Source of the DNA: an uncultured Thermomicrobia bacterium
Lineage (GTDB): Bacteria; Chloroflexota; Chloroflexia; Thermomicrobiales; JALYUS01
Length of the DNA stretch: 64,000 bases
Reading direction: 5' to 3'
Assembly (NCBI GenBank): GCA_937968015.1
Contig: CALBSO010000059.1
Span: 14,075-78,074 of the forward strand
The notes below the pieces were generated by a model. It did not search any database, was not told the origin of the DNA, and worked only from the letters and a program-made list of their open reading frames with translations. The translations under genes were made by a program, and so were the position numbers. Below are positions 131 through 56,005 of this stretch, in pieces (within the stretch, counting starts at the first letter, position 1; each line of letters begins with the position of its first letter).

Positions 131-200
131 CGACGAGCAACGAGTAGCGAGGAATGAGTAACGAGAGGCGCCGATCCCAGCCTCGTTCCTCGTTCCTCGC
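131..200. repeat. Heptad-phased hairpin repeat (left arm NNNYGAG x5, right arm CTCGTTC x2+)
   Basis: 131..165 reads CGACGAG CAACGAG TAGCGAG GAATGAG TAACGAG. 182..199 reads CTCGTTC CTCGTTC CTCG. The arms are imperfectly complementary. It lies in a divergent intergenic region. Confidence 0.7.
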
Positions 201-532
201 GGCTTAAAAAGAAGGGGCCGGGCGGGTGGGGACCGCGCCGGCCTGGGGAAGGGGAAGAAGGTATGTTCGTGGTATCGCAGCATCGGTGCCAGGGAGTCCG
301 CGTCGGGCCACTTTGCCGCAGTTCGCGGACTTTTCAGCCTGCTGCCAGGAACATCGCAAATTCGATGCCACCGTACCTTGCTGTTTGCATGCAAATGATC
401 CGGCCGGGTACGCGCGTCGCGAACCGTGTGATGGCGCGGTATGATGATGCCCGGCAGTCGGCAAGTCATGCTCCATCTCTTTCCCTCTTTGTCTTCTCTA
501 TCCGCGGGGTTCGCGTTTTTTGGGAGGCGGCG

Positions 533-1039
533 ATGTGGAGTACGGTAGTCTACGAGCGGTTGCGGGCGGCGGGGATCACGCTCGTTGCGCATGTGCCGGA
601 CAATATCGTCGCACCAATCATCCGCTGCTTTGAGGCGGACGCGGCGGTGACGACCGTCTCCTGCACGCGGGAAGAGGAGGGCGTCGGCATTATCGCGGGC
701 GGCCTCTTGGGCGGAACGCGCGGCGCCCTCCTGATGCAGACGAGCGGCTTCGGCAATTGCCCGAACGCGCTCGGCTCGCTCGTCGTGCCGTACCAGTTGC
801 CGCTCGTCATGGTGATCGCCGGGCGCGGCACGCTCAACGAGTTCAACCCCGCGCAGCGCGGCATGGGCCGAGGTATCACCCGGATGCTCGATGCACTTGA
901 CATCCAACACCACACCCTCGACCGCCCGGACACGCTGGAACAAACCCTGGACTACGCCCTCACCACCGCCTATCTCACGAGTTCCCCAGTCGCCTTCATC
1001 ATCTCATCGCTGCTATCGGGTGGGAAGAGAGAAGCCTGA
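533..1039 (+). CDS. Sulfopyruvate/phosphonopyruvate decarboxylase alpha-subunit-like protein (TPP enzyme N-terminal PYR domain)
   Basis: Starting at the internal Met (MWSTVVYERL...) gives a 168-aa protein. GGGAGG lies 5 nt upstream. TREEEGVGIIAGG...LLMQTSGFGN resembles ComD-type alpha subunits. The annotated longer ORF start at 263 has no support. Confidence 0.7.
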   Translation: MWSTVVYERLRAAGITLVAHVPDNIVAPIIRCFEADAAVTTVSCTREEEGVGIIAGGLLGGTRGALLMQTSGFGNCPNALGSLVVPYQLPLVMVIAGRGTLNEFNPAQRGMGRGITRMLDALDIQHHTLDRPDTLEQTLDYALTTAYLTSSPVAFIISSLLSGGKREA

Positions 1040-1124
1040 CGCGGTGATATGGAGGACCGATGCTCCCGTTGCATGCGCTATGATAGCGACGGAACAGGCG
1101 GGCAGGAAGGAAGGAGCGTCCGGT

Positions 1125-1331
1125 ATGGAGCGGTTGACCGCGCAGCAGCGCTGGATCATCACGGTGGTGGCATTGATTGTCGCGATCGTCTGCCTCGGGG
1201 AGTTCATGTACTGGGTCGCAATCGTCGAGAACCATCCGTGGTTCAAGCACTCGCTCCTCTACGCGGTGCTGGCGATTGGCGGTCTCGCCGTTGCCGCCTA
1301 TGCCTGGCCCCGAACGGCGCGGACGGAGTAA
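1125..1331 (+). CDS. Small two-helix membrane protein, function unknown
   Basis: MERLTAQQRW followed by two hydrophobic stretches (IITVVALIVAIVCL, LLYAVLAIGGLAVAAYA). AAGGAG lies 8 nt upstream. Confidence 0.5.
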   Translation: MERLTAQQRWIITVVALIVAIVCLGEFMYWVAIVENHPWFKHSLLYAVLAIGGLAVAAYAWPRTARTE

Positions 1332-1398
1332 TCATCCGGCGAACGGACGCCTGTCTGGCGGAAGCGGCACGCCTCATCTTCCGGGAGGAGGATTCGTC

Positions 1399-1896
1399 AT
1401 GAAAACCGATCTGATCCGCACCTTCTATGACTACAACACCTGGGCGAACGAGCGCATCCTGACGGCGTGCGCCGGGTTGAGCGACGCGCAGTTCGTCGCG
1501 GCGGGCAGCGCCAGTTTTTCCTCGATCCGCGACACACTCGTGCATACGATGTGGGCGCAGTGGAACTGGCTCTTGCGCTGGCGCGGTGAACCGAATCCAC
1601 CCCGCTTCGACCCGGCTGAGTACCCCGATGTCGCGGCGGTGCGGACGTGCTGGGCTGAGATAGACCGCGCGACGCATGCCTTCGTCGCGCGGGTGGATGA
1701 GGCGGCGCTCGACGCTGTTTGCCGCTATGTGAACAGCCGCAACGAGCCGATGGCGTACCCCCTCTGGCAACAGATGCTCCATCAGGTCAACCACGGCACG
1801 CAGCATCGCAGCGAGATCGCCGTTATCCTCACCGAATATGACCATTCCCCCGGCTGGATGGACTTCATTGTCTATCTTGACTCGCGAAAGCCTTGA
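1399..1896 (+). CDS. DinB-family (DinB_2-like) metal-dependent four-helix-bundle protein
   Basis: YNTWANERIL...IRDTLVHTMWAQWNW...QMLHQVNHGTQHRSEI carries the DinB His triad pattern. GGGAGGAGG precedes the ATG. Confidence 0.8.
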   Translation: MKTDLIRTFYDYNTWANERILTACAGLSDAQFVAAGSASFSSIRDTLVHTMWAQWNWLLRWRGEPNPPRFDPAEYPDVAAVRTCWAEIDRATHAFVARVDEAALDAVCRYVNSRNEPMAYPLWQQMLHQVNHGTQHRSEIAVILTEYDHSPGWMDFIVYLDSRKP

Positions 1897-1930
1897 GTCC
1901 GCTTGTCGGCCTCCGCGCAACGTGATACAT

Positions 1931-1951
1931 TGTGGTCACAGGGTGGTCACA
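1931..1951 (+). promoter_or_regulatory. Possible antitoxin operator: GTGGTCACA direct repeat spaced 11 nt apart
   Basis: TGTGGTCACA at 1931..1940 and GTGGTCACA at 1943..1951. Each is a near-palindrome (TGTG-NN-CACA). It lies immediately upstream of the antitoxin RBS. Confidence 0.35.
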
Positions 1952-1965
1952 ATGGAGGTGCTGTC

Positions 1966-2226
1966 ATGCGACACGTTGGTGTGCGAGAGTTCCGGGACAA
2001 GGCAACGACATATCTCTCCGGAGACGAGGTGCTCTCTGTAGAAAAGCATGGGAAGCCAATTGGGTTTTATGTTCCTGCTCCGAAGGCAAATCCTGAGGAG
2101 ACGCAGGAAGCCTTAGCGCGATTCAATGCGGCGGTTAAGCGTCTGCTCGATGAAAGTGGAATGACCCAAGAGGAACTTGCTGACTTCTTGGATCTTACGA
2201 AACCGTTCGATGCGTCTCGTCGTTGA
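1966..2226 (+). CDS. Phd/YefM-type type II antitoxin
   Basis: MRHVGVREFRDKATTYLSGDEVLSVEKHGKPIGFYVP is the typical Phd/YefM N-terminus. GGAGG lies 7 nt upstream. Local GC is clearly lower than the surroundings. Confidence 0.7.
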   Translation: MRHVGVREFRDKATTYLSGDEVLSVEKHGKPIGFYVPAPKANPEETQEALARFNAAVKRLLDESGMTQEELADFLDLTKPFDASRR

Positions 2227-2379
2227 CGCGAACGTACTCGTGTCGGAACTCTTGCGCTCACGTATGGCGCGAACGAAGCGGATATCTGGACGAGTGATGC
2301 GGACTTTCTCGGCTGTGGGATAGCGACGTGGACGACCGATACACTGTTGGCACATCTCGCTTACGTGGGGGCGAAGTAG
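2210..2379 (+). pseudogene. Remnant of a PIN-domain toxin (N-terminus and C-terminus only, frameshifted, about 80 codons missing)
   Basis: ATG 2210 overlaps the antitoxin end and reads MRLVVDANVLVSELLR (PIN N-terminal acidic motif), then stops at 2317. Another frame reads ...EADIWTSDADFLGCGIATWTTDTLLAHLAYVGAK* ending at 2379 (PIN C-terminal motif). The 170-nt total is far too short for a PIN domain. Confidence 0.55.
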
Positions 2380-2390
2380 TGACTGAGACA

Positions 2391-2948
2391 ATGAACCGGC
2401 TGGGCCTGACGCGGCGGGTGCTGGCGCATCTAACGGATGAGGCGGTCTTCGCCGGGATCGGCAACGCCGGGTTCGATCTGTTCGCCGCCGGTGATCGCCC
2501 CCAGAACTTCTACATGTTCGGCTCGATGGGGCTCGCGTCATCACTCGGGCTGGGCTACGCGCTCGCGCGGCCTGCCGAGCGCGTCGTCGTGCTGGAGGGC
2601 GAGGGGAGTGTGCTGATGAACCTCGGCTCCCTGGCGACCGTCGCCCGCATGCGGCCACGCGGATACCTGCTGGTCATCATGGATAACGGGACGTACGCGC
2701 TCACCGGCTCGCAGCGGAACGCGGCCGCCGAGATGACCGATATGGCGACGATCGCCCGTGGTGCGGGCATCCCGCATATCGCGACACCGCAGACCGCCGA
2801 GGCGTTCGAGCGGGCGGTCGTGGACGCGCTCGGCAGCGATGGCCCGGCGGTGATCGTCGTCAAGATCGCGGATGGCAACAGCGCGGTGCGGCACGAGTGG
2901 GACCCGGTGCAACTGAAGCATCGCTTCGTGGCGGGGGTGGCGCGATGA
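2391..2948 (+). CDS. Sulfopyruvate/phosphonopyruvate decarboxylase beta-subunit-like protein (TPP-binding PP domain)
   Basis: GSMGLASSLGLGYALA...VVVLEGEGSVLMNLGSLATV...IMDNGTYALTG carries the TPP GDG-x-N-like motif. Start taken at ATG 2391; GTG 2379 is an alternative. The track start 2328 lies inside the PIN remnant. Confidence 0.7.
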   Translation: MNRLGLTRRVLAHLTDEAVFAGIGNAGFDLFAAGDRPQNFYMFGSMGLASSLGLGYALARPAERVVVLEGEGSVLMNLGSLATVARMRPRGYLLVIMDNGTYALTGSQRNAAAEMTDMATIARGAGIPHIATPQTAEAFERAVVDALGSDGPAVIVVKIADGNSAVRHEWDPVQLKHRFVAGVAR

Positions 2949-3094
2949 CAATCATCAACCGGCGCGAGGTCGAGCCGGAGGGGTCGCGCCTATCCCCAGT
3001 GGTAAGGTATGCTTAGCCCCCGCGCGGTTTTTCGCGATCCGTGTGCGACATACACACTGCGGCGATACTGGGTTTGGATAGGAGGAACGCGGCG

Positions 3095-4141
3095 ATGGTA
3101 GTCAAGGTCGGTATCAACGGCTTCGGTCGGATCGGGCGGCAGGTCTTCAAGACAATCTATGGCGGATACGGGCCGGACGATGAGAATCCGGACGGGTTGC
3201 TGCAAGTCGTCGCGGTCAACGATCTGATGGACCTCCATACGATCGCCCACCTCTACAAGTACGATTCCACCTACGGCATCTCCGAGGAAGAGATCGAAGT
3301 CAGCGACCGCGATTTGATCGTGGATGGCAGCCCGGTGCATGTCTTCAGCGAGCGCGATCCCGGCGCGATCCCGTGGCGCGATTACGGCGTAGACATCGTC
3401 ATCGAATCTACCGGCTTCTTCACGGACGCCAACAAGGCGAAGGCGCACATGGACGGCGGCGCGAAGAAGGTCATTATCTCCGCCCCCGCCACCAATGAGG
3501 ACGTCACGCTCGTCCTTGGCGTCAACCAGGAGAAATACGACCCCGCGCAGCACAACGTCATCTCCAATGGTTCCTGCACGACGAACTGCATCGCGCCGAC
3601 CGCGAAGGTGCTGCTCGATACCTTCGGGATCGTCAAAGGCACGATGGTCACCGTCCATTCGTACACGAGCGATCAGATCCTCCTCGATGGCCCGCACAAG
3701 GACCTCCGCCGTGCCCGGAGCGCCGGGCAGAATATTATCCCGACGACGACCGGCGCTGCCCGTGCGCTCTCGCTCGTCATCCCCGAACTGAAGGGCAAAC
3801 TGGATGGCTACGCGCTCCGCGTCCCGACACCAACCGTCTCCATCCTCGACCTGACCGTCGAGACCGAGAAGAACACGAGCGTTGAGGAAGTGAACAATGC
3901 CTTTCAACAGGCGGCGGACAACGAAGAGAGTCCGCTGTTCGGCATTCTTGGCTACAGCGACGAGCCGCTCGTTTCGATGGATTACAAGCAGGATGATCGC
4001 TCCGCCATCCTCGACAGCCTCTCGACGATCGTCGTCGGCGGCAATATGGTGAAGGTCGTCGCATGGTATGACAACGAGTGGGGCTACTCCTGCCGCCTCG
4101 CTGACCTGACGAACATGATCGCGGAAAAGGGCGGCTGGTAG
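3095..4141 (+). CDS. gap: Glyceraldehyde-3-phosphate dehydrogenase, type I
   Basis: [24 protein letters not shown] active-site motif, [14 protein letters not shown] lies upstream of ATG 3095. Confidence 0.95.
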
Positions 4142-4146
4142 ATTTA

Positions 4147-4304
4147 CCTAACCCCCACTGCCCATGCTGCCCATGCTGCCCAGAGGGCGCCCGCGCCCGC
4201 ACCCGCCTTCCCGAAAAGGAAGGGAGAGAACGACAGCATTCCCGTAGGGGCGGTTGGTGAGCCGCCCGGTTTCCCTTCCCTTTAGGGAGGGGGTAGAGGG
4301 TAGG
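4147..4304. repeat. C-rich/G-rich terminal-inverted-repeat element (CCTAACCCCC...GGGTAGAGGGTAGG) filling the gap-pgk spacer
   Basis: Starts 6 nt after the gap stop and ends 5 nt before the pgk ATG. Contains CTGCCCATG x2, the 25-mer CTGCCCAGAGGGCGCCCGCGCCCGC (4176..4200), and internal hairpins (GCCTTCCC-GAAAA-GGAAGGGAG; CCCTTCCCTTTAGGGAGGGGG). Confidence 0.75.
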
Positions 4305-4308
4305 ATGT

Positions 4309-5541
4309 ATGGCGATCACGAAGCAGACGATCCGCGATATTCCGCCCGCCGACCTCACGGGGAGGCGGGCGCTGGTGCGGGTGGATTTCAATGTGCCCCT
4401 CAATGATGGCGTCGTCGGGGACACGACGCGGATCACGGCGGCGATCCCGACGATCTGCTTCCTGCTCGGGGCGGGCGCGGTCGTCGTGCTCATCTCCCAC
4501 CTCGGTCGTCCCAAGGGGAAGGTGGACCCTAAACAGAGTCTGAAACCCATCGCACCCGCGCTCGTGGAGCACCTCGGTATGCCGGTGCGGTTCGTGCCCG
4601 CATGTGTCGGGGAGGAAGCGGAAGCGGCGGTGCGGGCGGCGAAGCCGGGCGATGTGCTCCTGCTGGAGAATCTGCGCTTTCACGCCGAAGAAGAGGCGAA
4701 TGATCCCGATTTCGCCGCGCAACTCGCCAAACTGGGCGATCTCTATGTCAATGACGCCTTCGGCGCCGCGCATCGCGCCCATGCGAGTACGGAAGGCGTC
4801 GCGCATCTCCTGCCCGCCTATGCCGGTCTGCTGATGGAGAAAGAACTGGACGCGCTCGGCGGCCTGCTGGCGGGGGCGAAGCGCCCGTTTATCGTCGTCC
4901 TCGGCGGCGCGAAGATCTCGGACAAAATCGGCGTGATCGAGCATCTGATGGGCAAGGTGGACGGCTTCTGCATTGGCGGAGGGATGGCGAACACCTTCCT
5001 GCTCGCGCAGAACTATACCGTCGGCACATCGCTCGTTGAGCAGGACGCCGTGGCGACCGCACACGACATGCTCGCGCGTACCTCGACGCGCCGCGTCGGC
5101 CTGCACGTCCCGACGGACGCCGTCGTCTCAACGCAGAGCGCGAAGGAACTGCTCGGCGATCATGCGCCGGAGCCGGTGACGCGCACGGTTCGGATTGACG
5201 AAGTCGGCCCGGACGACGCGATCTATGACATCGGCCCGATGACCGCGTCCTACTACCGCAGTGTGGTGAAGGGCGCGCGTACCGTGTTTTGGAACGGCCC
5301 GATGGGCATGTTTGAAGTTCCCGCCTTCGCCCGAGGGACGATTGCCCTCGCCCACGCCGTCGCGGACGCATCGGCGAAGGGGACGGTGAGCGTCGTCGGC
5401 GGTGGGGATTCGGTCGCCGCCATTGAAGAAGCGGGCGTCGCTGACAAGATCACTCACGTCTCGACCGGCGGCGGCGCGTCATTGGAATTCCTCGAAGGCA
5501 AGACGTTGCCCGGCGTCGCAGCACTGAAAGAGAAGCAATGA
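4309..5541 (+). CDS. pgk: Phosphoglycerate kinase
   Basis: RVDFNVPL, SHLGRPKG and the full 410-aa architecture. Confidence 0.95.
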   Translation: MAITKQTIRDIPPADLTGRRALVRVDFNVPLNDGVVGDTTRITAAIPTICFLLGAGAVVVLISHLGRPKGKVDPKQSLKPIAPALVEHLGMPVRFVPACVGEEAEAAVRAAKPGDVLLLENLRFHAEEEANDPDFAAQLAKLGDLYVNDAFGAAHRAHASTEGVAHLLPAYAGLLMEKELDALGGLLAGAKRPFIVVLGGAKISDKIGVIEHLMGKVDGFCIGGGMANTFLLAQNYTVGTSLVEQDAVATAHDMLARTSTRRVGLHVPTDAVVSTQSAKELLGDHAPEPVTRTVRIDEVGPDDAIYDIGPMTASYYRSVVKGARTVFWNGPMGMFEVPAFARGTIALAHAVADASAKGTVSVVGGGDSVAAIEEAGVADKITHVSTGGGASLEFLEGKTLPGVAALKEKQ

Positions 5542-5600
5542 GCAACGAGCAATGAGCAATGAGACAGCGCATACCTACTCGTTGCTCATTGCTCGTTGCT
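5534..5600. repeat. Heptad-phased hairpin (AGCAATG/AGCAACG x4 versus complement), pgk-tpiA spacer
   Basis: Left arm 5534..5563, right arm 5575..5600. About 22 bp pair with a single T/C difference. The left arm contains the pgk stop codon. No T-tract follows. Confidence 0.8.
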
Positions 5601-5622
5601 GAAGTGAACGGAGTGAGCGCTC

Positions 5623-6381
5623 ATGCGGATGCCAATCATCGCGGGGAACTGGAAGATGCATACGACCTACGACGGCGCGATGGACCTCGTCGAGGCGCTG
5701 ATGGACGAACTCGACAATGTCGAAGGCGCGGAGATCGTGCTCTGTCCGCCCTTCCCGTGGCTGCTCGCCGTCGCGGAGTATCTGGAGGAGACGCCGATCC
5801 TGCTCGGAGCGCAGGATTGCTACTGGGCCGACGAGGGTGCGTTCACAGGCGAGGTCTCCGCGCTGATGCTCAAGGACCTCGCGCGGTACTGTATCGTCGG
5901 CCACTCCGAGCGGCGCGCACTCTTCGGTGAGACGGATGAGTGGGTGAACAAGAAGGTCCACGCACTCCTCGGACATGGCATCCGGCCGATTTGCTGCATC
6001 GGCGAGCGGTTGGAGGAGCGCGAGGCGGGCCGGACAGACCTCTTCGTCACGAGTCAGGTACGCGCGGCGTTCGCGGGCGTCTCCACGGAGGATGTCCTCA
6101 ACGTCGTCGTCGCCTACGAACCGATTTGGGCAATCGGCACAGGCCGCGCGGCGACCGCCGAGGAAGCGAATCGGGTCTGTGGCCTGATTCGCGATGAGAT
6201 CAGGACGCTCTACGGCGGCCCGACCGCCGAAGCCCTCCGCATCCAATATGGCGGCAGCGTCTCCGGCCGTAACGCCGCCGAACTGATGGCGCAACCAGAA
6301 ATTGACGGCGCGCTCGTCGGCGGTGCGAGCCTGCGGGCGGACGAGTTCGCGGCGATCGTGCGCGCGGCGGCCGAGGGATAG
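5623..6381 (+). CDS. tpiA: Triosephosphate isomerase
   Basis: IIAGNWKMH, VGHSERR, AYEPIWAIGTG. Confidence 0.95.
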   Translation: MRMPIIAGNWKMHTTYDGAMDLVEALMDELDNVEGAEIVLCPPFPWLLAVAEYLEETPILLGAQDCYWADEGAFTGEVSALMLKDLARYCIVGHSERRALFGETDEWVNKKVHALLGHGIRPICCIGERLEEREAGRTDLFVTSQVRAAFAGVSTEDVLNVVVAYEPIWAIGTGRAATAEEANRVCGLIRDEIRTLYGGPTAEALRIQYGGSVSGRNAAELMAQPEIDGALVGGASLRADEFAAIVRAAAEG

Positions 6382-6441
6382 GCAAGAAAGAGGGAGCGGC
6401 ATGTACCGCTCCCTCTTTCGCTGTGGTGAACTGAGGCGGGG

Positions 6442-7023
6442 TTATCCGTCACCCAACCGGCGGATGAAGTGTGAGCCGGGTGTCGCAGCCGGCGCCGGGG
6501 CGGGCGCTGGTGTGGGGGTCGGAGCCGGAGCGGCGAGGAAGGGCATCACCATCGCCAGCACCTCGTCCGGCGTCCGTCCCTTCGCCACCGCGTCCGGCGC
6601 GGGCGCTAAGCCCTGCAAATCCCGGAAGATCGAGGCGTGCTCCGCCTCTACCGCGTGGATTGTCACCGCTGCCGTCAAGAGGTCCCGGCTCTGGATATAT
6701 CCCGCCGCGCCCAGGTAGGCTGACGCGCCCAGGTCCTCCACCATTGTCACTACCGCGATCAACTGATCCCGGTTCGTGATTGGCCCCGCCGCAGCGAAGT
6801 TGTACGACGTCGGCTGCGTGACCGGTGTGCCGCCCAACTGGCCGATCACCTGCGTCAGCGTATCTACATGCGCCTGCTCCTGCGCCCCGAAGGTCGTCAG
6901 GTACTGCGCCTCGACGCCTGTCAGAAGATTCGCGCCGATCAGCACCTTGTACAGGGCCGCCTCGAACTGCTCCAAGGTCAGCGCGTAATTAAGGACATCA
7001 ATGTCATTGTTGAACGTAACCAT
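6442..7023 (-). CDS. Ferritin-like domain protein (Ferritin_2-type) with an AP-rich C-terminal tail
   Basis: DIDVLNYALTLEQFEAALY...QEQAHVDTL...AVEAEHAS gives ferritin-like diiron-type helices. It is a paralog of the next gene. Confidence 0.6.
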   Translation of the reverse strand: MVTFNNDIDVLNYALTLEQFEAALYKVLIGANLLTGVEAQYLTTFGAQEQAHVDTLTQVIGQLGGTPVTQPTSYNFAAAGPITNRDQLIAVVTMVEDLGASAYLGAAGYIQSRDLLTAAVTIHAVEAEHASIFRDLQGLAPAPDAVAKGRTPDEVLAMVMPFLAAPAPTPTPAPAPAPAATPGSHFIRRLGDG

Positions 7024-7044
7024 TGTCGTCTCGTTCTCCCTTCG

Positions 7045-7665
7045 TTATGCGCCGAGGATCGGCCCGGCAGCAGCGAGCACCATGTCCGGTGTCAGCGCCT
7101 TCTCGAATGCGGTTGGCACGGGCGCCATGCCGTCCTGCCGCCGCAGGATCGCCGTGTGGCGCGCCTCCACCTGCTGGATGCCGCCCGCGACAGTCAGGAT
7201 GCCTTTGTCTTTGATGAACTGCGCCGCGCCACTGTACGCGCCAACGCCCGTCTCTTCCAGCACGCGTAGGAAGTCAATGATCGTGTGCTCATCGGTGTAG
7301 GCGGGGAAGTTGTAGTGCGCCTGCTCGGCCACCGGCGTCTGGCCCGCCTGCTGCAGTGCGCCCGTAATCAGGACGACATGCTGGTGCTCCTGATCGCCGA
7401 ACATCTGCGCGTACTGCTGGTTCTTGCCGGTCAGTTTGCCGCTGGCGATCGCTTGGCGGTAGGCGACATCCTCGAGATGCTCCAGCGTGAGGGCGAAGTT
7501 GAGGATGGCGAAGTCGTCGGGGAGGTTGGCGGCGAGCGCCTGCGCCTCGGAGAAGGCGATGCTGCTGATCGGCATCGCCGCGAGCGCCGCCGCGCCGAGC
7601 GCCCCCTTCAGCAGTGAGCGGCGGGAAAGTTCCCCGTGTACGATGCGTAAAATGCGATCTTCCAC
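7045..7665 (-). CDS. Ferritin-like domain protein with a twin-arginine signal
   Basis: SRRSLLKGALGAAALAA Tat-type signal, then DFAILNFALTLEHLEDVAY...DQEHQHVVL...QVEARHTA. Confidence 0.6.
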   Translation of the reverse strand: MEDRILRIVHGELSRRSLLKGALGAAALAAMPISSIAFSEAQALAANLPDDFAILNFALTLEHLEDVAYRQAIASGKLTGKNQQYAQMFGDQEHQHVVLITGALQQAGQTPVAEQAHYNFPAYTDEHTIIDFLRVLEETGVGAYSGAAQFIKDKGILTVAGGIQQVEARHTAILRRQDGMAPVPTAFEKALTPDMVLAAAGPILGA

Positions 7666-7842
7666 GATCCAGATGCTCCTTCCTCATATTGAGGACTACA
7701 AATCCGATGACGGGCCGGGTATCAACCCGTCGTTTCGACCCTACCCTGAGTACGCAACGCATATGGGATCGGATCAGCCATATGCCGACAACGATCCCTG
7801 TTCCCTAGTCGCCACGCATCGCAATCAAGCGGCATCTATCGG

Positions 7843-7848
7843 TATAAT
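7843..7848 (+). promoter_or_regulatory. Perfect TATAAT hexamer upstream of the ECF sigma gene (candidate -10 box)
   Basis: GGTATAATGG in a locally AT-richer stretch, 30-85 nt upstream of the candidate starts. No convincing -35 box was seen. Confidence 0.3.
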
Positions 7849-7930
7849 GGAGATCCGGGTTCTTTCGCTCGGCTGAATGATTTCGGCAATGATCCGCGCT
7901 CGCGGGGTTTTCCGTACGGTTAGGAAGAGC

Positions 7931-8530
7931 ATGGCGGCGGACGAGAACAGGGATCAGGACGTGGACGCCGCGATTCTTCGTCAGATCGCGGGTCGCGATC
8001 CGCGCGGGGTCGAATTGCTCTATGATCGGTATAGTGGGGTAGCCTTCGCGCTCGCGTACCGTCTGCTCGGCGAGCGCGGCAGCGCGGAGGACGTGGTACA
8101 AGAAGCGTTCCTCAATGTCTGGCGACAAGGCGCGACGTATGACACCCGCCGCGGGACGGTTCGGACCTGGCTGCTGACGATCGTGCATCACCGCGCGATT
8201 GACCAGATGCGCAGTGTGCGGTCGAAAGCGGGCGCGGATACGGTCATTGATGGCGCGATGCCGCTGCCTGCCAAAGAGGATACATGGACGGAAGTGGTGC
8301 GCGGTTTGGAACACGAGCGAGTACGGCAGGCGATGGCAACCTTGCCGCCCGAGCAACGGCAGGTGGTGGATCTGGCGTATTACGGCGGATTCACTCATAC
8401 CGAGATCGCGCAGCGGGTCGGAATCCCCCTCGGGACGGTCAAAGGGCGCATGCGTCTGGCGCTCGACAAGTTACGCGATCTGCTGCATGTACCGGACACC
8501 GTAGATGAGGGAATGGAGCGCGCACGGTGA
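7931..8530 (+). CDS. ECF (group 4) sigma-70 family factor
   Basis: Region 2 (DVVQEAFLNVW) and region 4 (LPPEQRQVVDLAYYGGFTHTEIAQRVGIPLGTVKGRM). Start chosen at ATG 7931 (AGGAAG upstream); 7877 is also possible. Confidence 0.85.
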   Translation: MAADENRDQDVDAAILRQIAGRDPRGVELLYDRYSGVAFALAYRLLGERGSAEDVVQEAFLNVWRQGATYDTRRGTVRTWLLTIVHHRAIDQMRSVRSKAGADTVIDGAMPLPAKEDTWTEVVRGLEHERVRQAMATLPPEQRQVVDLAYYGGFTHTEIAQRVGIPLGTVKGRMRLALDKLRDLLHVPDTVDEGMERAR

Positions 8531-9324
8531 AGGCCCCGGAGAACAACCGTCCATCAGAAACGCCGGAGATGGATGAGACGCATCCATCCAGCCTGCTCGC
8601 GGCGTACGCCCTTCACGCGCTGCATCCGGAGGAGGACGCGGCGGTCGAGGAGTATCTCGCCGCGCACCCGGATGCGGCGGACGACATGGTGATGTTGAAA
8701 GAGGCGGCGGCGATGCTCCCCTATGGCGTTCCTCCCATCACGCCCAGCCCCCAACTCCGCGTCCGACTGATGGCGGATGTCTATCAGGAAGCCCTGGCGG
8801 ATACCGGAGAGCGCCCTCGTGCCGCGCAGCCCGTCGCGCTTGATCGCGTCCGCGCGCGTCGGCAGCGTGGCGTCGTCTGGCCGTTCGCGGCGGTCATTTT
8901 GCTCGTCCTCACGATCGGCTTCGGTGGTTGGGCCGCGACCCTCAACCATGATCTCACCGGCAAGGACCGGGTGATCGCCACGCAGCGCAGCGCGATCGCT
9001 TCGGCGGGCATGACGAAGCCAATCACGGGGACGACGCCGAATATCCCCGCGCGGGGAGAATTGCTCAGGCTTGCCAGCACTCAAGCCGCTGTCCTGACGA
9101 TCAGCGGGCTGCCGTCGCTCGCCACCGGGAAGGTGTACGAGGTCTGGTTCATTGCGGGGAATACTCCGGTCAGCGCGGGCCTCTTCTCCCCAAATGCCGA
9201 CGGCTCGTGGAGCGGCCTCGTGCGTGGAGATGTAACGAACGCGCAGACGATCGCAATCAGCGTCGAACCATTCGGTGGCAGTATCGCCCCGACCGGCGAG
9301 ATCGTCGCGACAGGTTCGCTCTAA
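8527..9324 (+). CDS. Anti-sigma factor, RskA-like (N-terminal sigma-binding helix, one TM helix, C-terminal RskA domain)
   Basis: GTGA overlap with the sigma gene stop. LLAAYALHALHPEE...; TM helix VVWPFAAVILLVLTIGFGGWA; C-terminal YEVWFIAGNTPVSAGLF...ISVEPFGGS. Confidence 0.7.
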   Translation: MKAPENNRPSETPEMDETHPSSLLAAYALHALHPEEDAAVEEYLAAHPDAADDMVMLKEAAAMLPYGVPPITPSPQLRVRLMADVYQEALADTGERPRAAQPVALDRVRARRQRGVVWPFAAVILLVLTIGFGGWAATLNHDLTGKDRVIATQRSAIASAGMTKPITGTTPNIPARGELLRLASTQAAVLTISGLPSLATGKVYEVWFIAGNTPVSAGLFSPNADGSWSGLVRGDVTNAQTIAISVEPFGGSIAPTGEIVATGSL

Positions 9325-9325
9325 T

Positions 9326-9388
9326 CAGTAGCGAGTAACGAGGGTGATTCCCTCAGCACTTGTTACTCGCTACTCGTTACTCGTACTC
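9326..9388. repeat. Heptad-phased hairpin between convergent genes (TAGCGAG TAACGAG / CTCGCTA CTCGTTA CTCG)
   Basis: AGTAGCGAGTAA (9327..9338) pairs with TTACTCGCTACT (9363..9374). The right arm encodes the last residues (ESTSNE*) of the minus-strand PIG-L gene. Confidence 0.75.
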
Positions 9389-10191
9389 TCGTGGACGGGC
9401 GTTTCTTCCAGTTCGCTCGCGCCCTCGGCAACGAGTTCGGCGCCGGCTTCCGCGTCCGGTGGGCGCTGGAGGATGATCTTGCGGTAACTCTCCGCGAAGG
9501 CGACCCCGTGCTTCTTGCCCGTCTCTTCCGTCCAGCGGCGGACGAAGGGCTCGACATCCTTGATATCGAACTGGCTCTTGTGCTCCGCGAGCGCGGCGAT
9601 CTTCACGTCCATCGCCTCGGTGACATCCACGAACGTTGTGCCGCCACCCCATGCCTCGACCCAGACCTCCTTGACCTTGTGCGGCTCCAGCCCCTCGGCG
9701 AGGAGTTCGGGGTAGAAATTGAAGTTGTCCGCCGCCGGGAAGATGCCGTAGAGCGCCGCTTCCGCCGCCGCCCGGTGGTCCGGGTGATTGATGTAGAAGT
9801 CGCCGCCGAAGCGGTTGTCCGGATCGCCGGTAATAATGACATCGGGCTTGTGCTGGCGGATGACGCGAGCGATATCGCGCCGGAGGGCAATTGTCGGCTG
9901 CAGGACGCCATCCTCGTAGCCGAGGTTGACGACGTGCGTGACACCGAGGACGCGCGCGGCGCGCGCCTGCTCCTCCGCGCGCAGAGCAACGAGTCGCTCC
10001 GACGTGATCGAGCGGTCGTCGTTGCCCTTCGAGCCGTCCGTGATGATCACCATCGTGATTTCGCTGCCCTGCCGCGCCCAGGTCGCCAGCGTGCCGCCGC
10101 AGCCGAACTCGGCGTCGTCCGGGTGGGCGAGGATCGTCATTGCGCGGCCCGGCGCGGTGGTGTCAGGTACGGATGCGGGGGTGTCGGCCAT
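9370..10191 (-). CDS. PIG-L/LmbE-family N-acetylglucosaminyl deacetylase (MshB/BshB-like)
   Basis: ILAHPDDAEFGCGG and HPDH motifs. Start at MADTPAS (AAGGAG upstream). The longer track ORF N-terminus is unsupported. Confidence 0.8.
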   Translation of the reverse strand: MADTPASVPDTTAPGRAMTILAHPDDAEFGCGGTLATWARQGSEITMVIITDGSKGNDDRSITSERLVALRAEEQARAARVLGVTHVVNLGYEDGVLQPTIALRRDIARVIRQHKPDVIITGDPDNRFGGDFYINHPDHRAAAEAALYGIFPAADNFNFYPELLAEGLEPHKVKEVWVEAWGGGTTFVDVTEAMDVKIAALAEHKSQFDIKDVEPFVRRWTEETGKKHGVAFAESYRKIILQRPPDAEAGAELVAEGASELEETPVHESTSNE

Positions 10192-10348
10192 GCGGGTCTC
10201 CTTCTCTGCTCTCTCGTGCGTCGCGATCCCATAGCGATCAACAACAGCGCATAGCGTACCACCATTCCGCCGCGTGCTATCATGGGCGGGAGCGCGCAAC
10301 GGAGCGCGCGAAAAGCGTTCGCACGACGAACCGACACGGGAGTGAGAG

Positions 10349-11089
10349 ATGAGCATCACCGCCGCCCCAACCGCCGCCCCCACGACGACAACCGCCGCCA
10401 AGGCGCCGACGCGCCGGCAATTCGTCCGCTTTGCCTTCTATCGCGTTGACCCGGCGTGGCGCCACCTGCCCGAGACCGACCGGGAGCGTGGCTATGCCGA
10501 ATTCCTCGCCCTGATTGACGCAACGACCCCGACGATGCTCGTCCGCTCGTACTCCTGCGTCGGGCTGCGGGCAGACGCGGACTTCCTCTTGTGGCAGGTC
10601 TCGTACGAACTCGATGACTTCCAGACCTTCGCGGCGAAACTGCACGGCACGGGCTTTGGCCGCTATCTGACGACGCCCTATGCCTACCTCTCGATGACGC
10701 GTCGCTCGCAGTACGTGGACCCGAAAGATCGTGAGAGTGAGTCGAATCGCCTGACCATCGAGTCGGGTGGCCGGAAGTACCTCTTTGTCTACCCCTTCGT
10801 CAAGACGCGTCAGTGGTTCGCGCTCTCGCTCGACGAGCGGCAGGAGATGATGCGCGAGCATATCGAGGTGGGTCAGGGGTATCCGTCGGTGAAACTGAAC
10901 ACCACCTATTCCTTCGGCCTCGATGACCAGGAGTGGGTCGTCGCCTTCGAGAGCGATTACCCGCAGGACTTCCTCGATCTCGTTGCCGCCCTACGAGAGA
11001 CGAAAGCGAGCGCCTACACCTTGCGCGATACCCCGATGATGACCTGCCGCGCCCTCGACATCCGCGACATCCTGCCGCAACTGGGGTGA
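10349..11089 (+). CDS. hemQ: Chlorite-dismutase-family coproheme decarboxylase (HemQ/ChdC)
   Basis: FAFYRVDPAWRHL...YLFVYPFVKTRQWFALS...REHIEVG...TYSFGLDDQEWVVAFE is the typical HemQ pattern. Confidence 0.8.
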   Translation: MSITAAPTAAPTTTTAAKAPTRRQFVRFAFYRVDPAWRHLPETDRERGYAEFLALIDATTPTMLVRSYSCVGLRADADFLLWQVSYELDDFQTFAAKLHGTGFGRYLTTPYAYLSMTRRSQYVDPKDRESESNRLTIESGGRKYLFVYPFVKTRQWFALSLDERQEMMREHIEVGQGYPSVKLNTTYSFGLDDQEWVVAFESDYPQDFLDLVAALRETKASAYTLRDTPMMTCRALDIRDILPQLG

Positions 11090-11255
11090 CCTCACCCCCG
11101 GCCCTCTCTCACCTGCCCATACTGCCCAGAGGGCGCCCGCGCCCGCGATGGAGAGGGGGAACAACCTTCGTGATGCTTCGATGATCAGCGGGAGACCACG
11201 GTATTTCGGGCGAGTCACCCCTCTCCATCGCGATGGAGAGGGGCAGGGGGTGAGG
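11090..11255. repeat. C-rich/G-rich terminal-inverted-repeat element (CCTCACCCCC...CAGGGGGTGAGG) filling the hemQ-glpD spacer
   Basis: Starts 1 nt after the hemQ stop and ends 8 nt before the glpD ATG. Carries the same 25-mer as 4176..4200 at 11122..11146, and a perfect 26-nt palindrome CCCCTCTCCATCGCGATGGAGAGGGG at 11218..11243. Confidence 0.8.
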
Positions 11256-11262
11256 TTTCCCC

Positions 11263-12987: not shown

Positions 12988-13211
12988 TCTGACGCTCAGA
13001 ATCCGCTCTGTATTTCCGCATCCGTATCTATCCCGTCACCGTCGAGGACGGCCAGGTCGTCGCCCTCTCAGGCAACGAATGATGAGTAACCCCTGCCCTT
13101 GACACGCACGTACATCTCATTGAACAATCACGCCGCACACATCGCCCGTTATCTCTTGCCCGATTTCCGACGGACATGCGTGCCTGTATGCGAGGAAGAA
13201 GGAGGAAAATC

Positions 13212-14414: not shown

Positions 14415-14415
14415 A

Positions 14416-14487
14416 AAGGACGAAGGACTGAGGGCGAAGGGCTACGGAGCGAACGGCGCTGCGCAGTCCTCAGTCCTCAGTCCTCAG
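14416..14487. repeat. Heptad-phased hairpin (AGGACGA AGGACTG AGGGCGA... / CAGTCCT x3), phnD-phnC spacer
   Basis: (CAGTCCT)3 at 14464..14484 is the complement of the AGGACTG-type units at 14416..14440. Confidence 0.75.
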
Positions 14488-14491
14488 AAAC

Positions 14492-15250: not shown

Positions 15251-15254
15251 AGAA

Positions 15255-40548: not shown

Positions 40549-40589
40549 GACATATTTATCCTACTTCGTTCTCAGCACTCAGTCCTACG
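40493..40589. repeat. Heptad inverted repeat bracketing the DUF983 start codon (TATCGAG TGTTGAG TGCGGAG TGCTGAG ... TTCTCAG CACTCAG TCCTACG)
   Basis: GAGTGCTGAG (CDS side) is complementary to CTCAGCACTC (5' side). ATG 40548 sits in the loop of about 48 nt. The upstream arm also supplies the last codons and stop of the PIN fragment. Confidence 0.65.
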
Positions 40590-42074: not shown

Positions 42075-42168
42075 GCCCTTCGCTACGCAACTGGCGTGCC
42101 AGAAACACCGCGGACAACGAAAAAGGACTGTGGCCTAAGTATACCATGCCGCCAATCGCCGAGCAGAC

Positions 42169-42236
42169 TCAAGGAACAAGTCGAAAGGAACAAGGGCTCC
42201 GCGACGATTTCTTGTTCCTTGTCACTTTTGACTTTC
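42169..42236. repeat. Heptad-phased hairpin (CAAGGAA CAAGTCG AAAGGAA CAAGG / CTTGTTC CTTGTCA CTTTTGA CTTT)
   Basis: AAGGAACAAG pairs with CTTGTTCCTT. The right arm encodes the last residues and stop (GESQK*) of the MFS gene. Confidence 0.7.
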
Positions 42237-43526: not shown

Positions 43527-43673
43527 GCGCTACTCCCTTCGCGTCTCCCCATCACGCTTGATGTTGTAGCCTCTCTCACTGGAAAAAAGGAGTGATTCAT
43601 TGTCGGTCGATCTGACGGTTTCTTCATTCTCGCACATCACTCGGCGGCAGCGCAAAAGTGTACGGGAAGCCGG

Positions 43674-43731
43674 ATCGAGTAACGAATAATGAGAAGGACT
43701 GAATTCCTCCCCTCGTTTCTCGTCACTTCTC
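43674..43731. repeat. Heptad-phased hairpin at the 3' end of fpg (pairs best as minus-strand RNA, with G:U wobbles)
   Basis: GAGTAACGAATAATGAGAAGGA versus TCCTCCCCTCGTTTCTCGTCACTTC. The mismatches are A/G and T/C classes that become G:U pairs in the fpg-sense transcript. Confidence 0.6.
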
Positions 43732-50335: not shown

Positions 50336-50429
50336 ACCGCGCGGCTTCACTCATTGCTCATCGCTGACAGCGGCATCAATCTTGCAAACGCCTTCCGGTT
50401 GATCGGGCGCGCGTGAGCGGGAGTAGGGT

Positions 50430-53670: not shown

Positions 53671-53709
53671 GGACGAGTAACGAGGGGTTGCACGATCACT
53701 CGTTACTCC
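53671..53709. repeat. Heptad-type hairpin (GGACGAG TAACGAG G ... CACTCGT TACTCC) inside the T-box leader
   Basis: GAGTAACGAG pairs with CTCGTTACTC. It sits where Stem II/III of a T-box leader would be. Confidence 0.6.
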
Positions 53710-53805: not shown

Positions 53806-53843
53806 CGCGCCTCGTCCGATTCGGACGGGGCGCGCTGCGTTTT
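53806..53843 (+). terminator. Intrinsic terminator of the T-box leader
   Basis: 12-bp stem CGCGCCTCGTCC / GGACGGGGCGCG (one G:U), loop GATTC, then CTGCGTTTT. The 5' arm can alternatively pair with the T-box core (ACGAG/CTCGT). Confidence 0.6.
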
Positions 53844-53862
53844 GGTGCGCGTGGAGGTGGAC

Positions 53863-55158
53863 ATGATGGAACGCGTATTGGCGGGCGAACTCGCCCAATG
53901 TATCGGGCAGCGGGTGCGGGTCGCGGGGTGGCTCCATCAGGTGCGGGCCCTCGGTGGCGTGACGTTCGTGCTCGTGCGCGATCGGACGGGGATCGTTCAG
54001 ACCGTCTTCGACCGCAACCCGGCGGAATTGACCGGGTTGCTGGCAGAGAGCGTGGTCGCGGTGACCGGCACGGTCGTCGCGGAACCGCGCGCCGCGCTCG
54101 GCGTCGAACTGCATGATGCACAGATTGCGGTCATCACACCCGTTACCGGGGTGCTGCCATTTGAACTGAATAAGAAGGTGCTCAATCCGACGCTGGACAC
54201 CCTGCTCGATCATGCCCCAGTTGGGTTGCGCCACCCGACGAAGCAGGCGACCTTCCGGCTCGTCGCGGCGATGGGGCAGGCGCTCCGTGCGGCATTCATC
54301 GCGCGCGGCTGCACGGAAATCCACACGCCGAAACTCGTCGCGGGCGCGATCGAAGGAGGCGCGAATCTCTTTCCTGTCCAGTATTTCGACCGGCAGGCGT
54401 ACCTCGCGCAAAGCCCGCAACTCTACAAGCAGATCATGGTCGGGGTCTTCGAGCGCGTCTTCGAGATTGCGCCCGTCTTCCGCGCCGAGCCGCACGCGAC
54501 AACCCGTCATCTGAACGAGTACGTCAGCGTGGACGTGGAGATCGGCTTCATCGAAGACCACCGGACAGTGATGGCATTCCTGCAATCGTCGCTTGCAGAG
54601 GCGTTCATGTCACTCGCGGAGACGCATGCGGCGGACGTTGCACTGCTCGATGTCACGATGCCAGTAATTGGGGAAATCCCCTCCATCCATTTCCGCGACG
54701 CGCTGCAACTGATCTACGAGCGGCACGGCGAGGACGCGCGCCACGAGCCGGACCTCGCGCCGCAACACGAGCGGTGGCTGTGCGAGTGGGCGATGGAGGA
54801 ATACGGCAGCCCGCTCCTCTTCGTCACGCACTACCCGACGGTCAAGCGCCCCTTCTACACGATGCCCGACCCGGCGGAACCGGCATACACGCACGGCTTC
54901 GATCTCCTCTTTCGCGGGCTGGAGGTGACGACGGGTGGGCAGCGCATCCACCGGCCGGAGCAATTACTCGCCAGTATGGCGCGATTCGGCGTGTCGCCGG
55001 AGCCATTCGGGGGCTATCTTGAGGCATTCCGCTTCGGCATGCCACCACATGGTGGGTTCGCCATCGGGCTCGAACGGCTCGTCATGCAACTGATCGGCGC
55101 GCGCAATGTCCGCGAGACGACGCTCTTTCCGCGCGACATTCACCGATTGATGCCCTGA
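53863..55158 (+). CDS. aspS: Aspartyl-tRNA synthetase, archaeal/eukaryal-type (class IIb, about 430 aa)
   Basis: OB-fold N-terminus (VRVAGWLHQVRALGGVTFVLVRDRTG), motif 2 FRAE, motif 3 GFAIGLERL, QSPQLYKQ. GGAGGTGG upstream of ATG 53863. Confidence 0.9.
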   Translation: MMERVLAGELAQCIGQRVRVAGWLHQVRALGGVTFVLVRDRTGIVQTVFDRNPAELTGLLAESVVAVTGTVVAEPRAALGVELHDAQIAVITPVTGVLPFELNKKVLNPTLDTLLDHAPVGLRHPTKQATFRLVAAMGQALRAAFIARGCTEIHTPKLVAGAIEGGANLFPVQYFDRQAYLAQSPQLYKQIMVGVFERVFEIAPVFRAEPHATTRHLNEYVSVDVEIGFIEDHRTVMAFLQSSLAEAFMSLAETHAADVALLDVTMPVIGEIPSIHFRDALQLIYERHGEDARHEPDLAPQHERWLCEWAMEEYGSPLLFVTHYPTVKRPFYTMPDPAEPAYTHGFDLLFRGLEVTTGGQRIHRPEQLLASMARFGVSPEPFGGYLEAFRFGMPPHGGFAIGLERLVMQLIGARNVRETTLFPRDIHRLMP

Positions 55159-55197
55159 TGAATGTCGCGCTGCGGTGTAATGCCGGTCCTGACTGGC

Positions 55198-55899
55198 TTA
55201 TTCGCGCTGGATATGCAGGCCGCGATGGGTGCCGGGTTCGTGGGCTTCATGTGGCTCGTCCGGCTGTGGAACGGGCGCGGGTGGCGTTGGTGGAGTGCGA
55301 ATCTCCTTATGAACGATCCGTCCATCCGCATCAAGTGTGTAGAGATACGGCGTTGCGGTGGGGATTTCGAGGGAGACGATCCGCGCGGGCGTCAGCCCCT
55401 CGATCTCCTTGACGATCGCGCGCAGGCTGTTTCCATGCGCGACGACCAGCACATTTTCTCCCGCCGTGACGCGGGGCAGGATGTGGTCGCGGAAGAAGGG
55501 GAAGGCGCGGGCATCGGTATCGGCGAGGCTTTCGCCGCCCGGTGGCCGGATATCCCAGGAACGACGCCATGCATGGATCCGCTCCGCGCCGAAGCGTGCC
55601 GCCGCCTCATCCTTATTCATCCCCGTCAGGTCGCCGTAGTCGCGTTCATTGAGCGCGGCGTCCTTCGTGATCGGAACGTCAGCGCGATCGAGCACACTGA
55701 GGATGATCGCGAGCGTTTCCTGTGCCCGCTGGAGCATCGAAGTGAAGGCGCAATCTACCGGAATATCGTGCAGAAGGTGGCCCGCACGCGTCGCCTCTCG
55801 CTGCCCCGCGCCAGTGAGCGACACATCTGTCCAGCCCGTGAAGCGATTTTCGAGATTCCACTGCGATTGCCCGTGTCGAACGAGCGCGAGATAGGCCAT
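55198..55899 (-). CDS. gpmA: 2,3-bisphosphoglycerate-dependent phosphoglycerate mutase
   Basis: LALVRHGQSQWNLENRFTGW (RHG catalytic His), VVAHGNSLR. GGAGG precedes ATG 55899. Confidence 0.9.
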   Translation of the reverse strand: MAYLALVRHGQSQWNLENRFTGWTDVSLTGAGQREATRAGHLLHDIPVDCAFTSMLQRAQETLAIILSVLDRADVPITKDAALNERDYGDLTGMNKDEAAARFGAERIHAWRRSWDIRPPGGESLADTDARAFPFFRDHILPRVTAGENVLVVAHGNSLRAIVKEIEGLTPARIVSLEIPTATPYLYTLDADGRIVHKEIRTPPTPPAPVPQPDEPHEAHEPGTHRGLHIQRE

Positions 55900-56005
55900 C
55901 GGACCTCCGAGCAATGAGCAATGAGTAACGTGCCCCCCGCATTGACGCCGATTGCTCCCGCACATACGCTACCACCGTCACGATCGCACGGGAAACAGAT
56001 GGGAC

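Follow-up and report, generated by a model that had tools for sequence, protein, structure and literature searches.

The DNA considered here is a stretch of 64,000 nt (the window) from an uncultured Thermomicrobia bacterium (contig CALBSO010000059.1), whose gene map was drawn from called genes and Pfam matches. It holds, among others, acs, pgk and tpiA, the phnD, phnC and phnE genes, dppB and dppC, fpg, genes of the MFS_3 family and a GH39 gene; scans of the window returned no Rfam 15 match at gathering score and no tRNA or tmRNA. Dispersed among these genes are elements that we call heptad foldbacks, in which a tandem array of 7-nt units is followed by a loop and then by an array of the complementary heptamer (Table 1). 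At orthologous sites in related genomes the position and the pairing of these foldbacks last while the heptamer itself is exchanged, and we lean towards the view that they are palindromic microsatellites driven by slippage at the level of DNA. The window sequence is identical to part of an 80-kb metagenome contig of the European Nucleotide Archive and to a contig of the Joint Genome Institute, and the same architecture occurs in many metagenome-assembled genomes (MAGs) and in finished genomes from the literature, which excludes an assembly artefact. The closest genomes are uncultured Chloroflexota labelled Thermomicrobiales or Chloroflexia (Pgk identity 90%). The relatives compared, whose loci or contigs carry L-numbers (L120, L203-L245 and others), are all MAG or metagenome contigs, and the sites compared in them were pgk-tpiA, fpg-MFS_3, MFS_3-DHH and GH39.

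Table 1. Heptad foldbacks and unpaired heptad arrays of the window (MFE, minimum free energy; SD, Shine-Dalgarno sequence; + and - denote strands)
Element	Position	Strand	Structure	Context
Foldback A	131-200		5' arm of NNNCGAG/NAATGAG units (131-165); 16-nt loop; 3' arm (CCTCGTT)n (182-200)	Divergent spacer between acs start (67, -) and gene at 533 (+)
Foldback B	5534-5600		(CAAYGAG)4, 14-nt loop, (CTCRTTG)3; MFE -40.6, z -9.3	pgk stop TGA (5539-5541) within first unit; tpiA start 5623
Foldback C	9326-9388		TAGCGAG/TAACGAG units	Between convergent anti-sigma (RskA_C domain) and PIG-L genes; anti-sigma stop 9324; PIG-L stop 9370-9372 (-); arm holds final 6 codons and stop of PIG-L
Foldback D	14416-14487		AGGACTG-type 5' arm, (CAGTCCT)3 3' arm	Fills phnD-phnC spacer
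Foldback E	15254-15396		(GTGCTGA)3 at 15254-15275; (CTCAGCA)-type at 15369-15396; 93-nt loop	Loop contains called SD and ATG of phnE (15298); 3' arm within called N-terminal codons
Foldback F	27834-27939		On + strand: TAACGAG x3, AAGTAAC-type units, loop, CTTGTTCCTCGTTACGCG	dppB-dppC spacer (genes on -); adjoins dppB stop 27939-27941
Foldback G	31110-31151		GAAGTTCGGAGTTTGGAG / CTTCGAACTCCGAACTTC, 6-nt spacer; GGAGTTY units	Directly 3' of SBP_bac_5 gene stop (31154, -)
Element H	39705-39766		Decayed foldback; sense-strand units GAGTAAC/GAGTATC	In frame within GH39 gene (38129-39976/40018, -)
Foldback I	40493-40589		Sense strand: G-rich arm upstream, start codon (with called SD) in loop, C-rich arm encoding PQHSALNTRY	Surrounds DUF983 start (40548, -)
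Foldback J	42169-42236		AAGGAAC/AAGTCGA units	MFS_3 stop (42222-42224, -) in arm; then promoter-like sequence for DHH gene
Foldback K	43674-43731		NNACGAG-type units	fpg stop (43723-43725, -) in arm; then conserved promoter-like MFS_3 leader
Foldback L	53671-53709		Two TAACGAG-type units per arm	140 nt past cysS stop; 154 nt before tRNA-synt_2 (Asn/Asp-type) synthetase gene
Solo G-rich array	39982-40012	-	AGTCGGC class on sense strand	5' end of GH39; relatives encode SRQSAVG
Solo C-rich array	50349-50370	+	ACTCATTGCTCATCGCT	Between CHAD stop (50335) and KaiC-like gene start (50430)
Solo array	55909-55930	+	(GAGCAAT)2 GAGTAAC	Divergent spacer; on - strand, C-rich form directly upstream of GGAGG and ATG of His_Phos_1 gene (start 55899)

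All 11 foldback loci and both half-sites of a preliminary description, made from the sequence alone, were recovered at their coordinates, and foldback G was added to them. Every listed locus has the architecture given above, and at nearly every one Tandem Repeats Finder reported arrays of period 7, with 86-100% matches. In a scan for tandem tracts of periods 4-12, period 7 gave 11 tracts as against 0.1 per dinucleotide shuffle, with all other periods near background. A heptad tract followed by its reverse complement within 170 nt was found at 5 loci (0.05 in shuffles), and a second detector of heptad arrays with a nearby reverse complement returned 6 (0.4 in shuffles); relaxing the heptad threshold mainly added noise (35 vs 21). 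These same loci make up most of the longest inverted repeats in the window. All of them fold, with MFE z-scores from -1.2 to -9.3 and a z of -2.7 or lower on at least one strand in 10 of 12, H and I being the weakest folders. The preliminary description would have given up its claim of a distinct kind of element had there been no excess over shuffled sequence or no capacity to fold back; within the window the excess is of the order just given and every locus can fold.

What the units share is a grammar and not a sequence. The trinucleotide said to recur every 7 nt does so, although GAG proved too narrow a definition: SAG (GAG or CAG), often SAGT, fits better, and the vocabulary of the clade can be written SAG(T)NNN, a common core followed by three or four variable bases. 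At least ten unit classes occur in this one clade, mostly without G-tracts (GAGTAAC, GAGTGCT, GAGGACT, GAGTTCG and CAGTAGT among them); GAGCAAT is a further class, and in most classes a run of three or more G does not recur with each unit. Loops are mostly 12-20 nt and sometimes 30-110 nt long, with no conservation of their sequence. Comparison of the clade foldbacks revealed no common consensus or loop similarity, no near-identical copies, the arms being unlike in both the class and the order of their units, and, apart from the arrays, no terminal inverted repeats. This agrees with the original picture of a dispersed family defined by its period and its foldback, as well as with its separation from the repetitive extragenic palindromic sequences (REPs) and the bacterial interspersed mosaic elements (BIMEs) built from them, and from MITEs, the miniature inverted-repeat transposable elements, a separation to which the lack of a Y1-transposase Pfam match among the called genes also speaks. 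A perfectly palindromic loop centre, the signature of template switching, was sought; the 12-20 nt loops are non-palindromic except at 31110-31151. As a separate observation, GATC is present in 7 of 31 clade foldback loops, for example at 166-181 of the window (GCCGATCCCA), several of these loops being orthologous.

The arms obey a strict polarity. In all 31 clade foldbacks the 5' arm has more G than C (mean skew +0.45), and wherever arrays are adjacent a purine-rich one precedes a pyrimidine-rich one (15-19 cases, with none in the reverse order). The G-rich arm also comes first in other phyla (38 vs 6, p ~1e-6). Since a palindrome looks identical from both strands, this means that only one of the two possible kinds of palindrome is used. 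Read by gene orientation, stops precede the G-rich arm and the C-rich arm precedes starts. Polarity can outlive pairing: at L211:6283-6350 a G-rich array of the GCAGTAG class is followed, after 4 nt, by a C-rich array of another, non-complementary class (CTTAGTC). Stop codons in all frames were considered as a general cause of the polarity and rejected, about half of the unit classes holding a stop triplet and the Xanthomonas unit none. Likewise, a resemblance of the G-rich arm to the SD sequence is confined to some classes.

Elements occupy 13 of the 39 spacers of at least 40 nt in the window (10 of 31 co-directional, 1 of 2 convergent and 2 of 6 divergent), and 13 of 14 elements are intergenic or overlap a gene end. 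For pgk, PIG-L, MFS_3 and fpg the stop falls within an arm, and the arm-encoded C-termini first proposed (ESTSNE*, GESQK* and SREK*) had all been read correctly. The pgk-tpiA (81 nt) and phnD-phnC (77 nt) spacers contain little beyond the element and a ribosome-binding site. Placement at gene ends describes most elements; it fails for 39705-39766, which lies within a gene, and for 131-200 and 55909-55930, which lie in divergent spacers. At 15254-15396 and 40493-40589, too, the arrangement is exceptional, with the called SD and start in the loop and the C-rich arm in called codons.

Two of the flanking regions deserve a description of their own. An extended -10-like motif (TGGTATACT, 42138-42146, - strand), conserved in L209, L210, L212 and L214, lies just past foldback J, which therefore sits between the MFS_3 stop and a likely promoter. 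A perfect match to the sigma-54-type -24/-12 sequence (TGGCAC-N5-TTGC, 42087-42101, - strand) also lies 13 nt before the ATG called for the DHH-family gene, the only exact one in the window and conserved in relatives (TTTCTGGCA[CT]G.CAGTTGCGTA); its spacing would imply a leaderless or a mis-called start of that gene. Between foldback K and the MFS_3 start runs a leader of ~130 nt (43527-43657, - strand), highly conserved among the relatives, with the sequence CACTTTTGCGC..GTGCGAGAATGAAGAAACCGTCAGA..CTCCTTTTT..GGCTACAAC...; it is promoter-like (TTGCGC / GAGAAT), has no Rfam match and might form a structured 5' untranslated region.

The comparison of orthologous spacers, which the preliminary description had proposed as a check, gave this result: position and foldback were kept, the heptamer class differed and the number of units varied by insertion and deletion. 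In the pgk-tpiA spacer of L120, whose flanking genes have 86-88% nucleotide identity with those of the window, a foldback starts at the same spot from the stop codon with units of GTAGTCA type in place of CAATGAG. Around MFS_3, 16 loci were compared (76-92% amino-acid identity); in nearly all of them fpg and MFS_3 are each directly followed by a heptad foldback, in classes that include GTTCGGA, GTGCTGA, GTAGTCA, CAGTAGA, GCAGGCA, TAACGAG and GGACTGA. The element after fpg is absent from L203, where the frame continues for 13 other codons across the empty site (L203:130-180). In L217 (4770-4860), the fpg frame traverses a whole TAACGAG foldback before it stops; with the alternative end in L203, the C-terminus of Fpg is therefore variable and repeat-encoded. 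Arrays are dense in the clade (81 per 195 kb, most of them paired) as against 35 per 520 kb around distant pgk loci.

Two kinds of change can be seen directly. Inside 5' arms, contigs of ~97% identity are set apart by an indel of 14 nt (L204/L205) and one of 7 nt (L206/L207), with just four other indels in ~10 kb; these whole-unit steps bear out the slippage-driven growth that had been suggested from the outset. A change of another kind separates L212 (1571-1653) from L214 (6296-6378), in which the entire 83-nt element after MFS_3 aligns in reversed orientation at 96% identity between flanks of 95% identity. The loop has flipped between the arms in this pair. The loop of the inverted element itself holds a second heptad array, of the CAGTGNG class.

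Element H, inside the GH39 gene, is a case apart. Searches with tblastn found the GH39 protein conserved on both sides of 39705-39766. In 24 distant homologues (37-64% amino-acid identity) the segment between the conserved flanks measures about 84 nt (78-114 nt; exactly 84 in 17), and most of them encode ..SGGxVWPxPxAPMDFS.. there; in the clade of the window, heptad sequence of 69-114 nt, in frame in every case, stands in place of this conserved segment. The class at this site is TAACGAG in the window and L245, whereas L223, L224 and L241 have a near-perfect GTTCGRA foldback, L205 and L222 a GTCGGCA array and L221 a collapsed remnant; the element remains a near-perfect foldback in L223, L224 and L245, which shows that it can last with no part in termination. 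These classes roughly track relatedness, so unit classes are inherited and occasionally replaced. In the window and L245 the out-of-frame units retain TAA, but the unit in which this triplet would be read as a codon has TAT instead; this avoidance of stop codons shows purifying selection on the reading frame. The preliminary description had held a 7-nt period to be incompatible with codon phase and the role of the elements to be structural and not coding. This was too strong: the GH39 element is translated in frame with its stops avoided, and several arms encode protein termini. As to the gene itself, the best matches beyond Chloroflexota among the homologues L231-L244 (45-51% amino-acid identity) are in Acetobacteraceae (Belnapia, Craurococcus and Acidisphaera), which suggests that it may have been transferred horizontally.

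The explanation that we favour, and hold to be somewhat on the probable side, is that the elements are slippage-driven palindromic microsatellites of DNA, self-maintaining and hypermutable, with interacting arms, that persist wherever 7-nt indels are tolerated. Replication slippage adds or removes whole units, as the 7- and 14-nt indels show, the preference for 7 nt being that of the polymerase-slippage proposal in the literature. The arms interact physically as DNA, to which the inversion of a whole element between 95%-identical genomes attests. Template switching or gene conversion between them could then maintain complementarity while the unit drifts or is replaced. The outcome would be the one seen across species, a lasting position and foldback with a changing heptamer class. 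Tolerated sites would be those right after stops (the G-rich arm often supplying the stop), short operon spacers, the space between convergent genes and some leaders; one permissive protein loop, in GH39, would tolerate the element as well, which is translated. Elements that are transcribed would inevitably form stems of 16-30 bp. Any REP-like effect of such stems, whether they impede 3' exonucleases, bring about partial termination or serve RNase III as a site, would likely be a by-product or a co-option.

A number of points weigh against this explanation. Purely neutral slippage predicts neither the 31:0 polarity nor the return of one small set of unit classes in several phyla and at loci unrelated to each other. 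The step by which the arms are kept complementary is conjectural, and in L204 one arm has been altered with no matching change in the other. The clade sample, ~200 kb of MAG contigs, includes orthologous and hence non-independent sites. The G-rich arm begins -18 to +5 nt from the upstream stop in 10 of 12 foldbacks, and several elements fit exactly into the gap that separates a stop codon from a conserved promoter-like sequence, which is the position expected of a selected terminator or stabiliser. Moreover, hairpins followed by U-runs are not enriched in positions 1-20000 of the window (12 found vs 11.4 expected), and where canonical terminators are not enriched something else may fill their role.

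One could also envision the elements as selected RNA stem-loops: terminators without U-tracts, attenuators or REP-like stabilisers of mRNA 3' ends, grown by the mutational route of heptads, which would govern how strongly the genes of an operon are expressed relative to one another and would shield convergent genes from each other. We regard this as possible, if doubtful. It would account for elements behind the genes of substrate-binding proteins (phnD, SBP_bac_5) in operons, after stops, between convergent genes and just upstream of promoter-like motifs, and for a position and pairing conserved across species despite complete turnover of the sequence; the polarity, too, might have its reason in the weak RNA:DNA hybrid that a pyrimidine-rich 3' arm would make. 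However, the sense strand has no folding advantage over the antisense strand (18 vs 15 among 35 elements of known transcription direction, p=0.86), and in the same 35 elements sense-strand G.U pairs (23) are not significantly commoner than A.C mismatches (16). Nothing, then, favours selection at the RNA level, the two strands folding equally well, and the RNA role entertained in the preliminary description finds no support in this. Copies also lie in divergent spacers and around starts, the fpg-MFS_3 element is missing from one relative (L203), and the persistence of a strong foldback within an open reading frame (ORF) does not sit easily with a selected terminator. The likeness to Rho-independent terminators consists in a GC-containing stem directly after stop codons. 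Those terminators have a short GC-rich stem, a loop of 3-8 nt and a U-tract; here the stems are 16-30 bp of tandem units, occurring also within an ORF and in divergent spacers, and loops of 12-20 nt or more with no U-tract are ill-suited to intrinsic termination. The absence of U-tracts had been described before, and indeed we found no T-run at the elements; none of the 12 terminator-like matches in positions 1-20000 coincides with an element.

Repeats of this kind are not confined to the window. Exact (GAGYAAY)3 arrays occur in well over 100 genomes among the matches listed, whose carriers include Cyanobacteria, Chloroflexota, Acidobacteriota (Blastocatellia, Pyrinomonadaceae), Bacteroidota, Gemmatimonadota and Chlorobiaceae; many have a complementary array close by, and there are neighbouring foldbacks of other units too. 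The YAAYGAG arrays of the window are also found in Symploca, Nostoc, Calothrix and others. The closest published counterparts are the GGGAATC and GGGGA(C/T)T repeats of Xanthomonas and Nostoc (Rehm et al. 2015, PMC4692102), which comprise 2 to >20 tandem units, are distributed genome-wide and are ~90% intergenic. Some 75% of the Xanthomonas arrays form convergent inverted pairs, 70-75 per genome, with the potential for a stem-loop or a cruciform; they lie on average 28 nt past the 5' ORF, are rare between divergent genes, fill the same spacers in related species with differing length and sequence, and are transcribed, their function being unknown (PMC4692102). The G-rich repeats of both genera have the same orientation to stops and starts as the arms in the window (PMC4692102). 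Our loci share with these pairs the iteration of a unit, the convergent complementary arrays, the stop-proximal intergenic placement and the variation between genomes. They differ in that Xanthomonas and Nostoc have one dominant G-tract unit, read as forming G-quadruplexes with a preference for four units, whereas the clade of the window has many classes, mostly without G-tracts. Membership in a narrow GGGNATC family can accordingly be rejected for units such as GAGTAAC, GAGCAAT, GAGTGCT, GAGGACT and GAGTTCG. Since convergent inverted pairs of heptamer repeats downstream of ORFs had already been published for Xanthomonas and Nostoc, the elements cannot stand as the undescribed class that they were first taken for. 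The kind is known; what is new is its presence in Chloroflexota, the wealth of non-G4 (non-G-quadruplex) classes in a single genome, the replacement of classes at orthologous sites, the copy that is read in frame, the inversion and the polarity put in figures.

It is tempting to unite all these repeats in a single class spanning Chloroflexota, Cyanobacteria, Acidobacteriota, Bacteroidota, Gemmatimonadota and Xanthomonas, with the shared SAG(T)NNN grammar and a nearly invariant G-to-C polarity, made or maintained by a dedicated process and serving in these lineages as a general gene-end signal in place of canonical terminators. The process would be a nucleic-acid-binding protein working in the heptamer register, or a template-switch pathway of a polymerase, that could renew both arms in concert and even overwrite coding sequence. 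Taken as a whole, this proposal seems to us unlikely.

Less likely still is that the arrays are binding sites for a protein that reads one unit per 7 nt, such as a cold-shock-domain protein, an S1-like protein or another binder of single-stranded RNA or DNA, with SAG(T) as the contact. The idea has a precedent. The TAACTGA unit of marine Beggiatoaceae, Cyanobacteria and Bacteroidetes is intergenic; its repetition puts a stop codon into every frame, it may reach up to 18 nt into the ends of ORFs, and its phyletic spread is patchy (MacGregor 2015, PMC4679880). Binders of the above sort were proposed for these repeats, at about one cold-shock domain per heptamer. These arrays are mostly direct and lie immediately upstream of starts in the 'forward', stop-containing orientation, with just one inverted pair (PMC4679880). 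The elements of the window resemble them as intergenic heptamers of patchy spread that overlap ORF ends, and are unlike them in that paired arrays predominate, with the stop-containing G-rich arm behind ORFs and the C-rich arm ahead of starts. A core common to all classes, the recurrence of classes across loci and phyla and the strict strand polarity relative to genes would all suit a binding protein. Nevertheless, units are very diverse outside the core, whole classes are swapped at one site, pairing of the arms would hide single-stranded sites, and the called genes of the window include no candidate for the protein. Other heptamers belong to the same background. According to the two papers that cite it (PMC4692102 and PMC4679880), Mrazek 2007 described the heptamer as the over-represented unit of long simple sequence repeats in many bacteria, mostly intergenic, and proposed polymerase slippage as its origin. 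Those repeats and the cyanobacterial short tandemly repeated repetitive (STRR) heptamers of Mazel et al. 1990, as far as the citing papers describe them, are direct arrays, while here the paired, complementary and polar form dominates. Finally, a preprint on Nostoc reports heptamer repeats near promoters with regulatory effects.

The elements also invite comparison with known palindromic repeats. Like REPs, BIMEs and REPINs (doublets of REPs), they are extragenic hairpin repeats in operon spacers and between convergent genes, and REPIN doublets, for their part, carry a fixed 5' tag on both strands. REPs reportedly stabilise upstream mRNA (Newbury et al. 1987). Within a genome REPs share a consensus of 20-40 bp, along with a tag (GTAG or CGTC) and a gene for a REP-associated tyrosine transposase (RAYT); here there is neither a consensus nor a palindrome free of tandem units. 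Palindromic elements of Rickettsia reportedly lie in frame inside protein-coding genes and are translated (Ogata et al. 2000). Those are consensus copies of 100-150 bp, and the in-ORF element described here is a heptamer foldback whose unit class depends on the species. That the elements are mobile, whether as non-autonomous MITE- or REP/REPIN-like sequences spread by a transposase (e.g. RAYT) or as small insertions targeted to gene ends, is very improbable: the presence or absence at one orthologous site (L203 vs others) with CCG flanking the filled sites on both sides, the recurrence of unit classes at many loci and the echo of the Rickettsia elements would fit, but the CCG flank is a single event in conserved sequence that a deletion explains equally well, no two elements are alike in loop or overall sequence, the MITE/REP reading is rejected for want of a shared consensus, and neither the genes called in the window nor those in the 4.4 kb upstream of it gave a RAYT, Y1 or other transposase match in Pfam.

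Some further features of the window may be recorded. The ndk-MFS_3 spacer (23958-24040) contains an ordinary hairpin (23958-23991; 15 bp, GCGA loop) and, past it, a GC-rich heptamer array, (CGCGTGG)3-4, with no complementary partner (24015-24040). In the gap-pgk spacer (4206-4311) there is a 20-nt inverted repeat (CCTTCCCGAAAAGGAAGGGA / TCCCTTCCCTTTAGGGAGGG), and a G-rich, weakly period-7 stretch (GGGGGTAGAGGGTAGG) extends into the pgk start. The 218-nt spacer upstream of a glpD-like DAO gene holds two nested long-range inverted repeats (11082-11263; 23 nt at 87% and 15 nt at 100%) that have no Rfam match and may be a structured leader. At 61709-63162 (- strand) lie a nucleotidyltransferase gene (NTP_transf_2/AadA_C), a PIN-domain gene and a 91-codon gene that overlaps the latter by one base, a cluster that looks like toxin-antitoxin-type modules.

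Heptamer repeats are the most frequent long microsatellites of bacteria and fill a large share of the intergenic DNA in some phyla. The window and its relatives offer a natural experiment on them, in which the foldback sequence has been fully replaced at the same sites, slippage and inversion are directly visible and one copy lies within a gene. Because most classes are without G-tracts, the formation of G-quadruplexes, offered as an explanation for Xanthomonas, cannot be their common denominator. The polarity rule, in turn, provides a sharp experimental handle. The elements also call for caution in annotation, as they yield variable protein termini and insertions and can mislead the calling of starts and stops.

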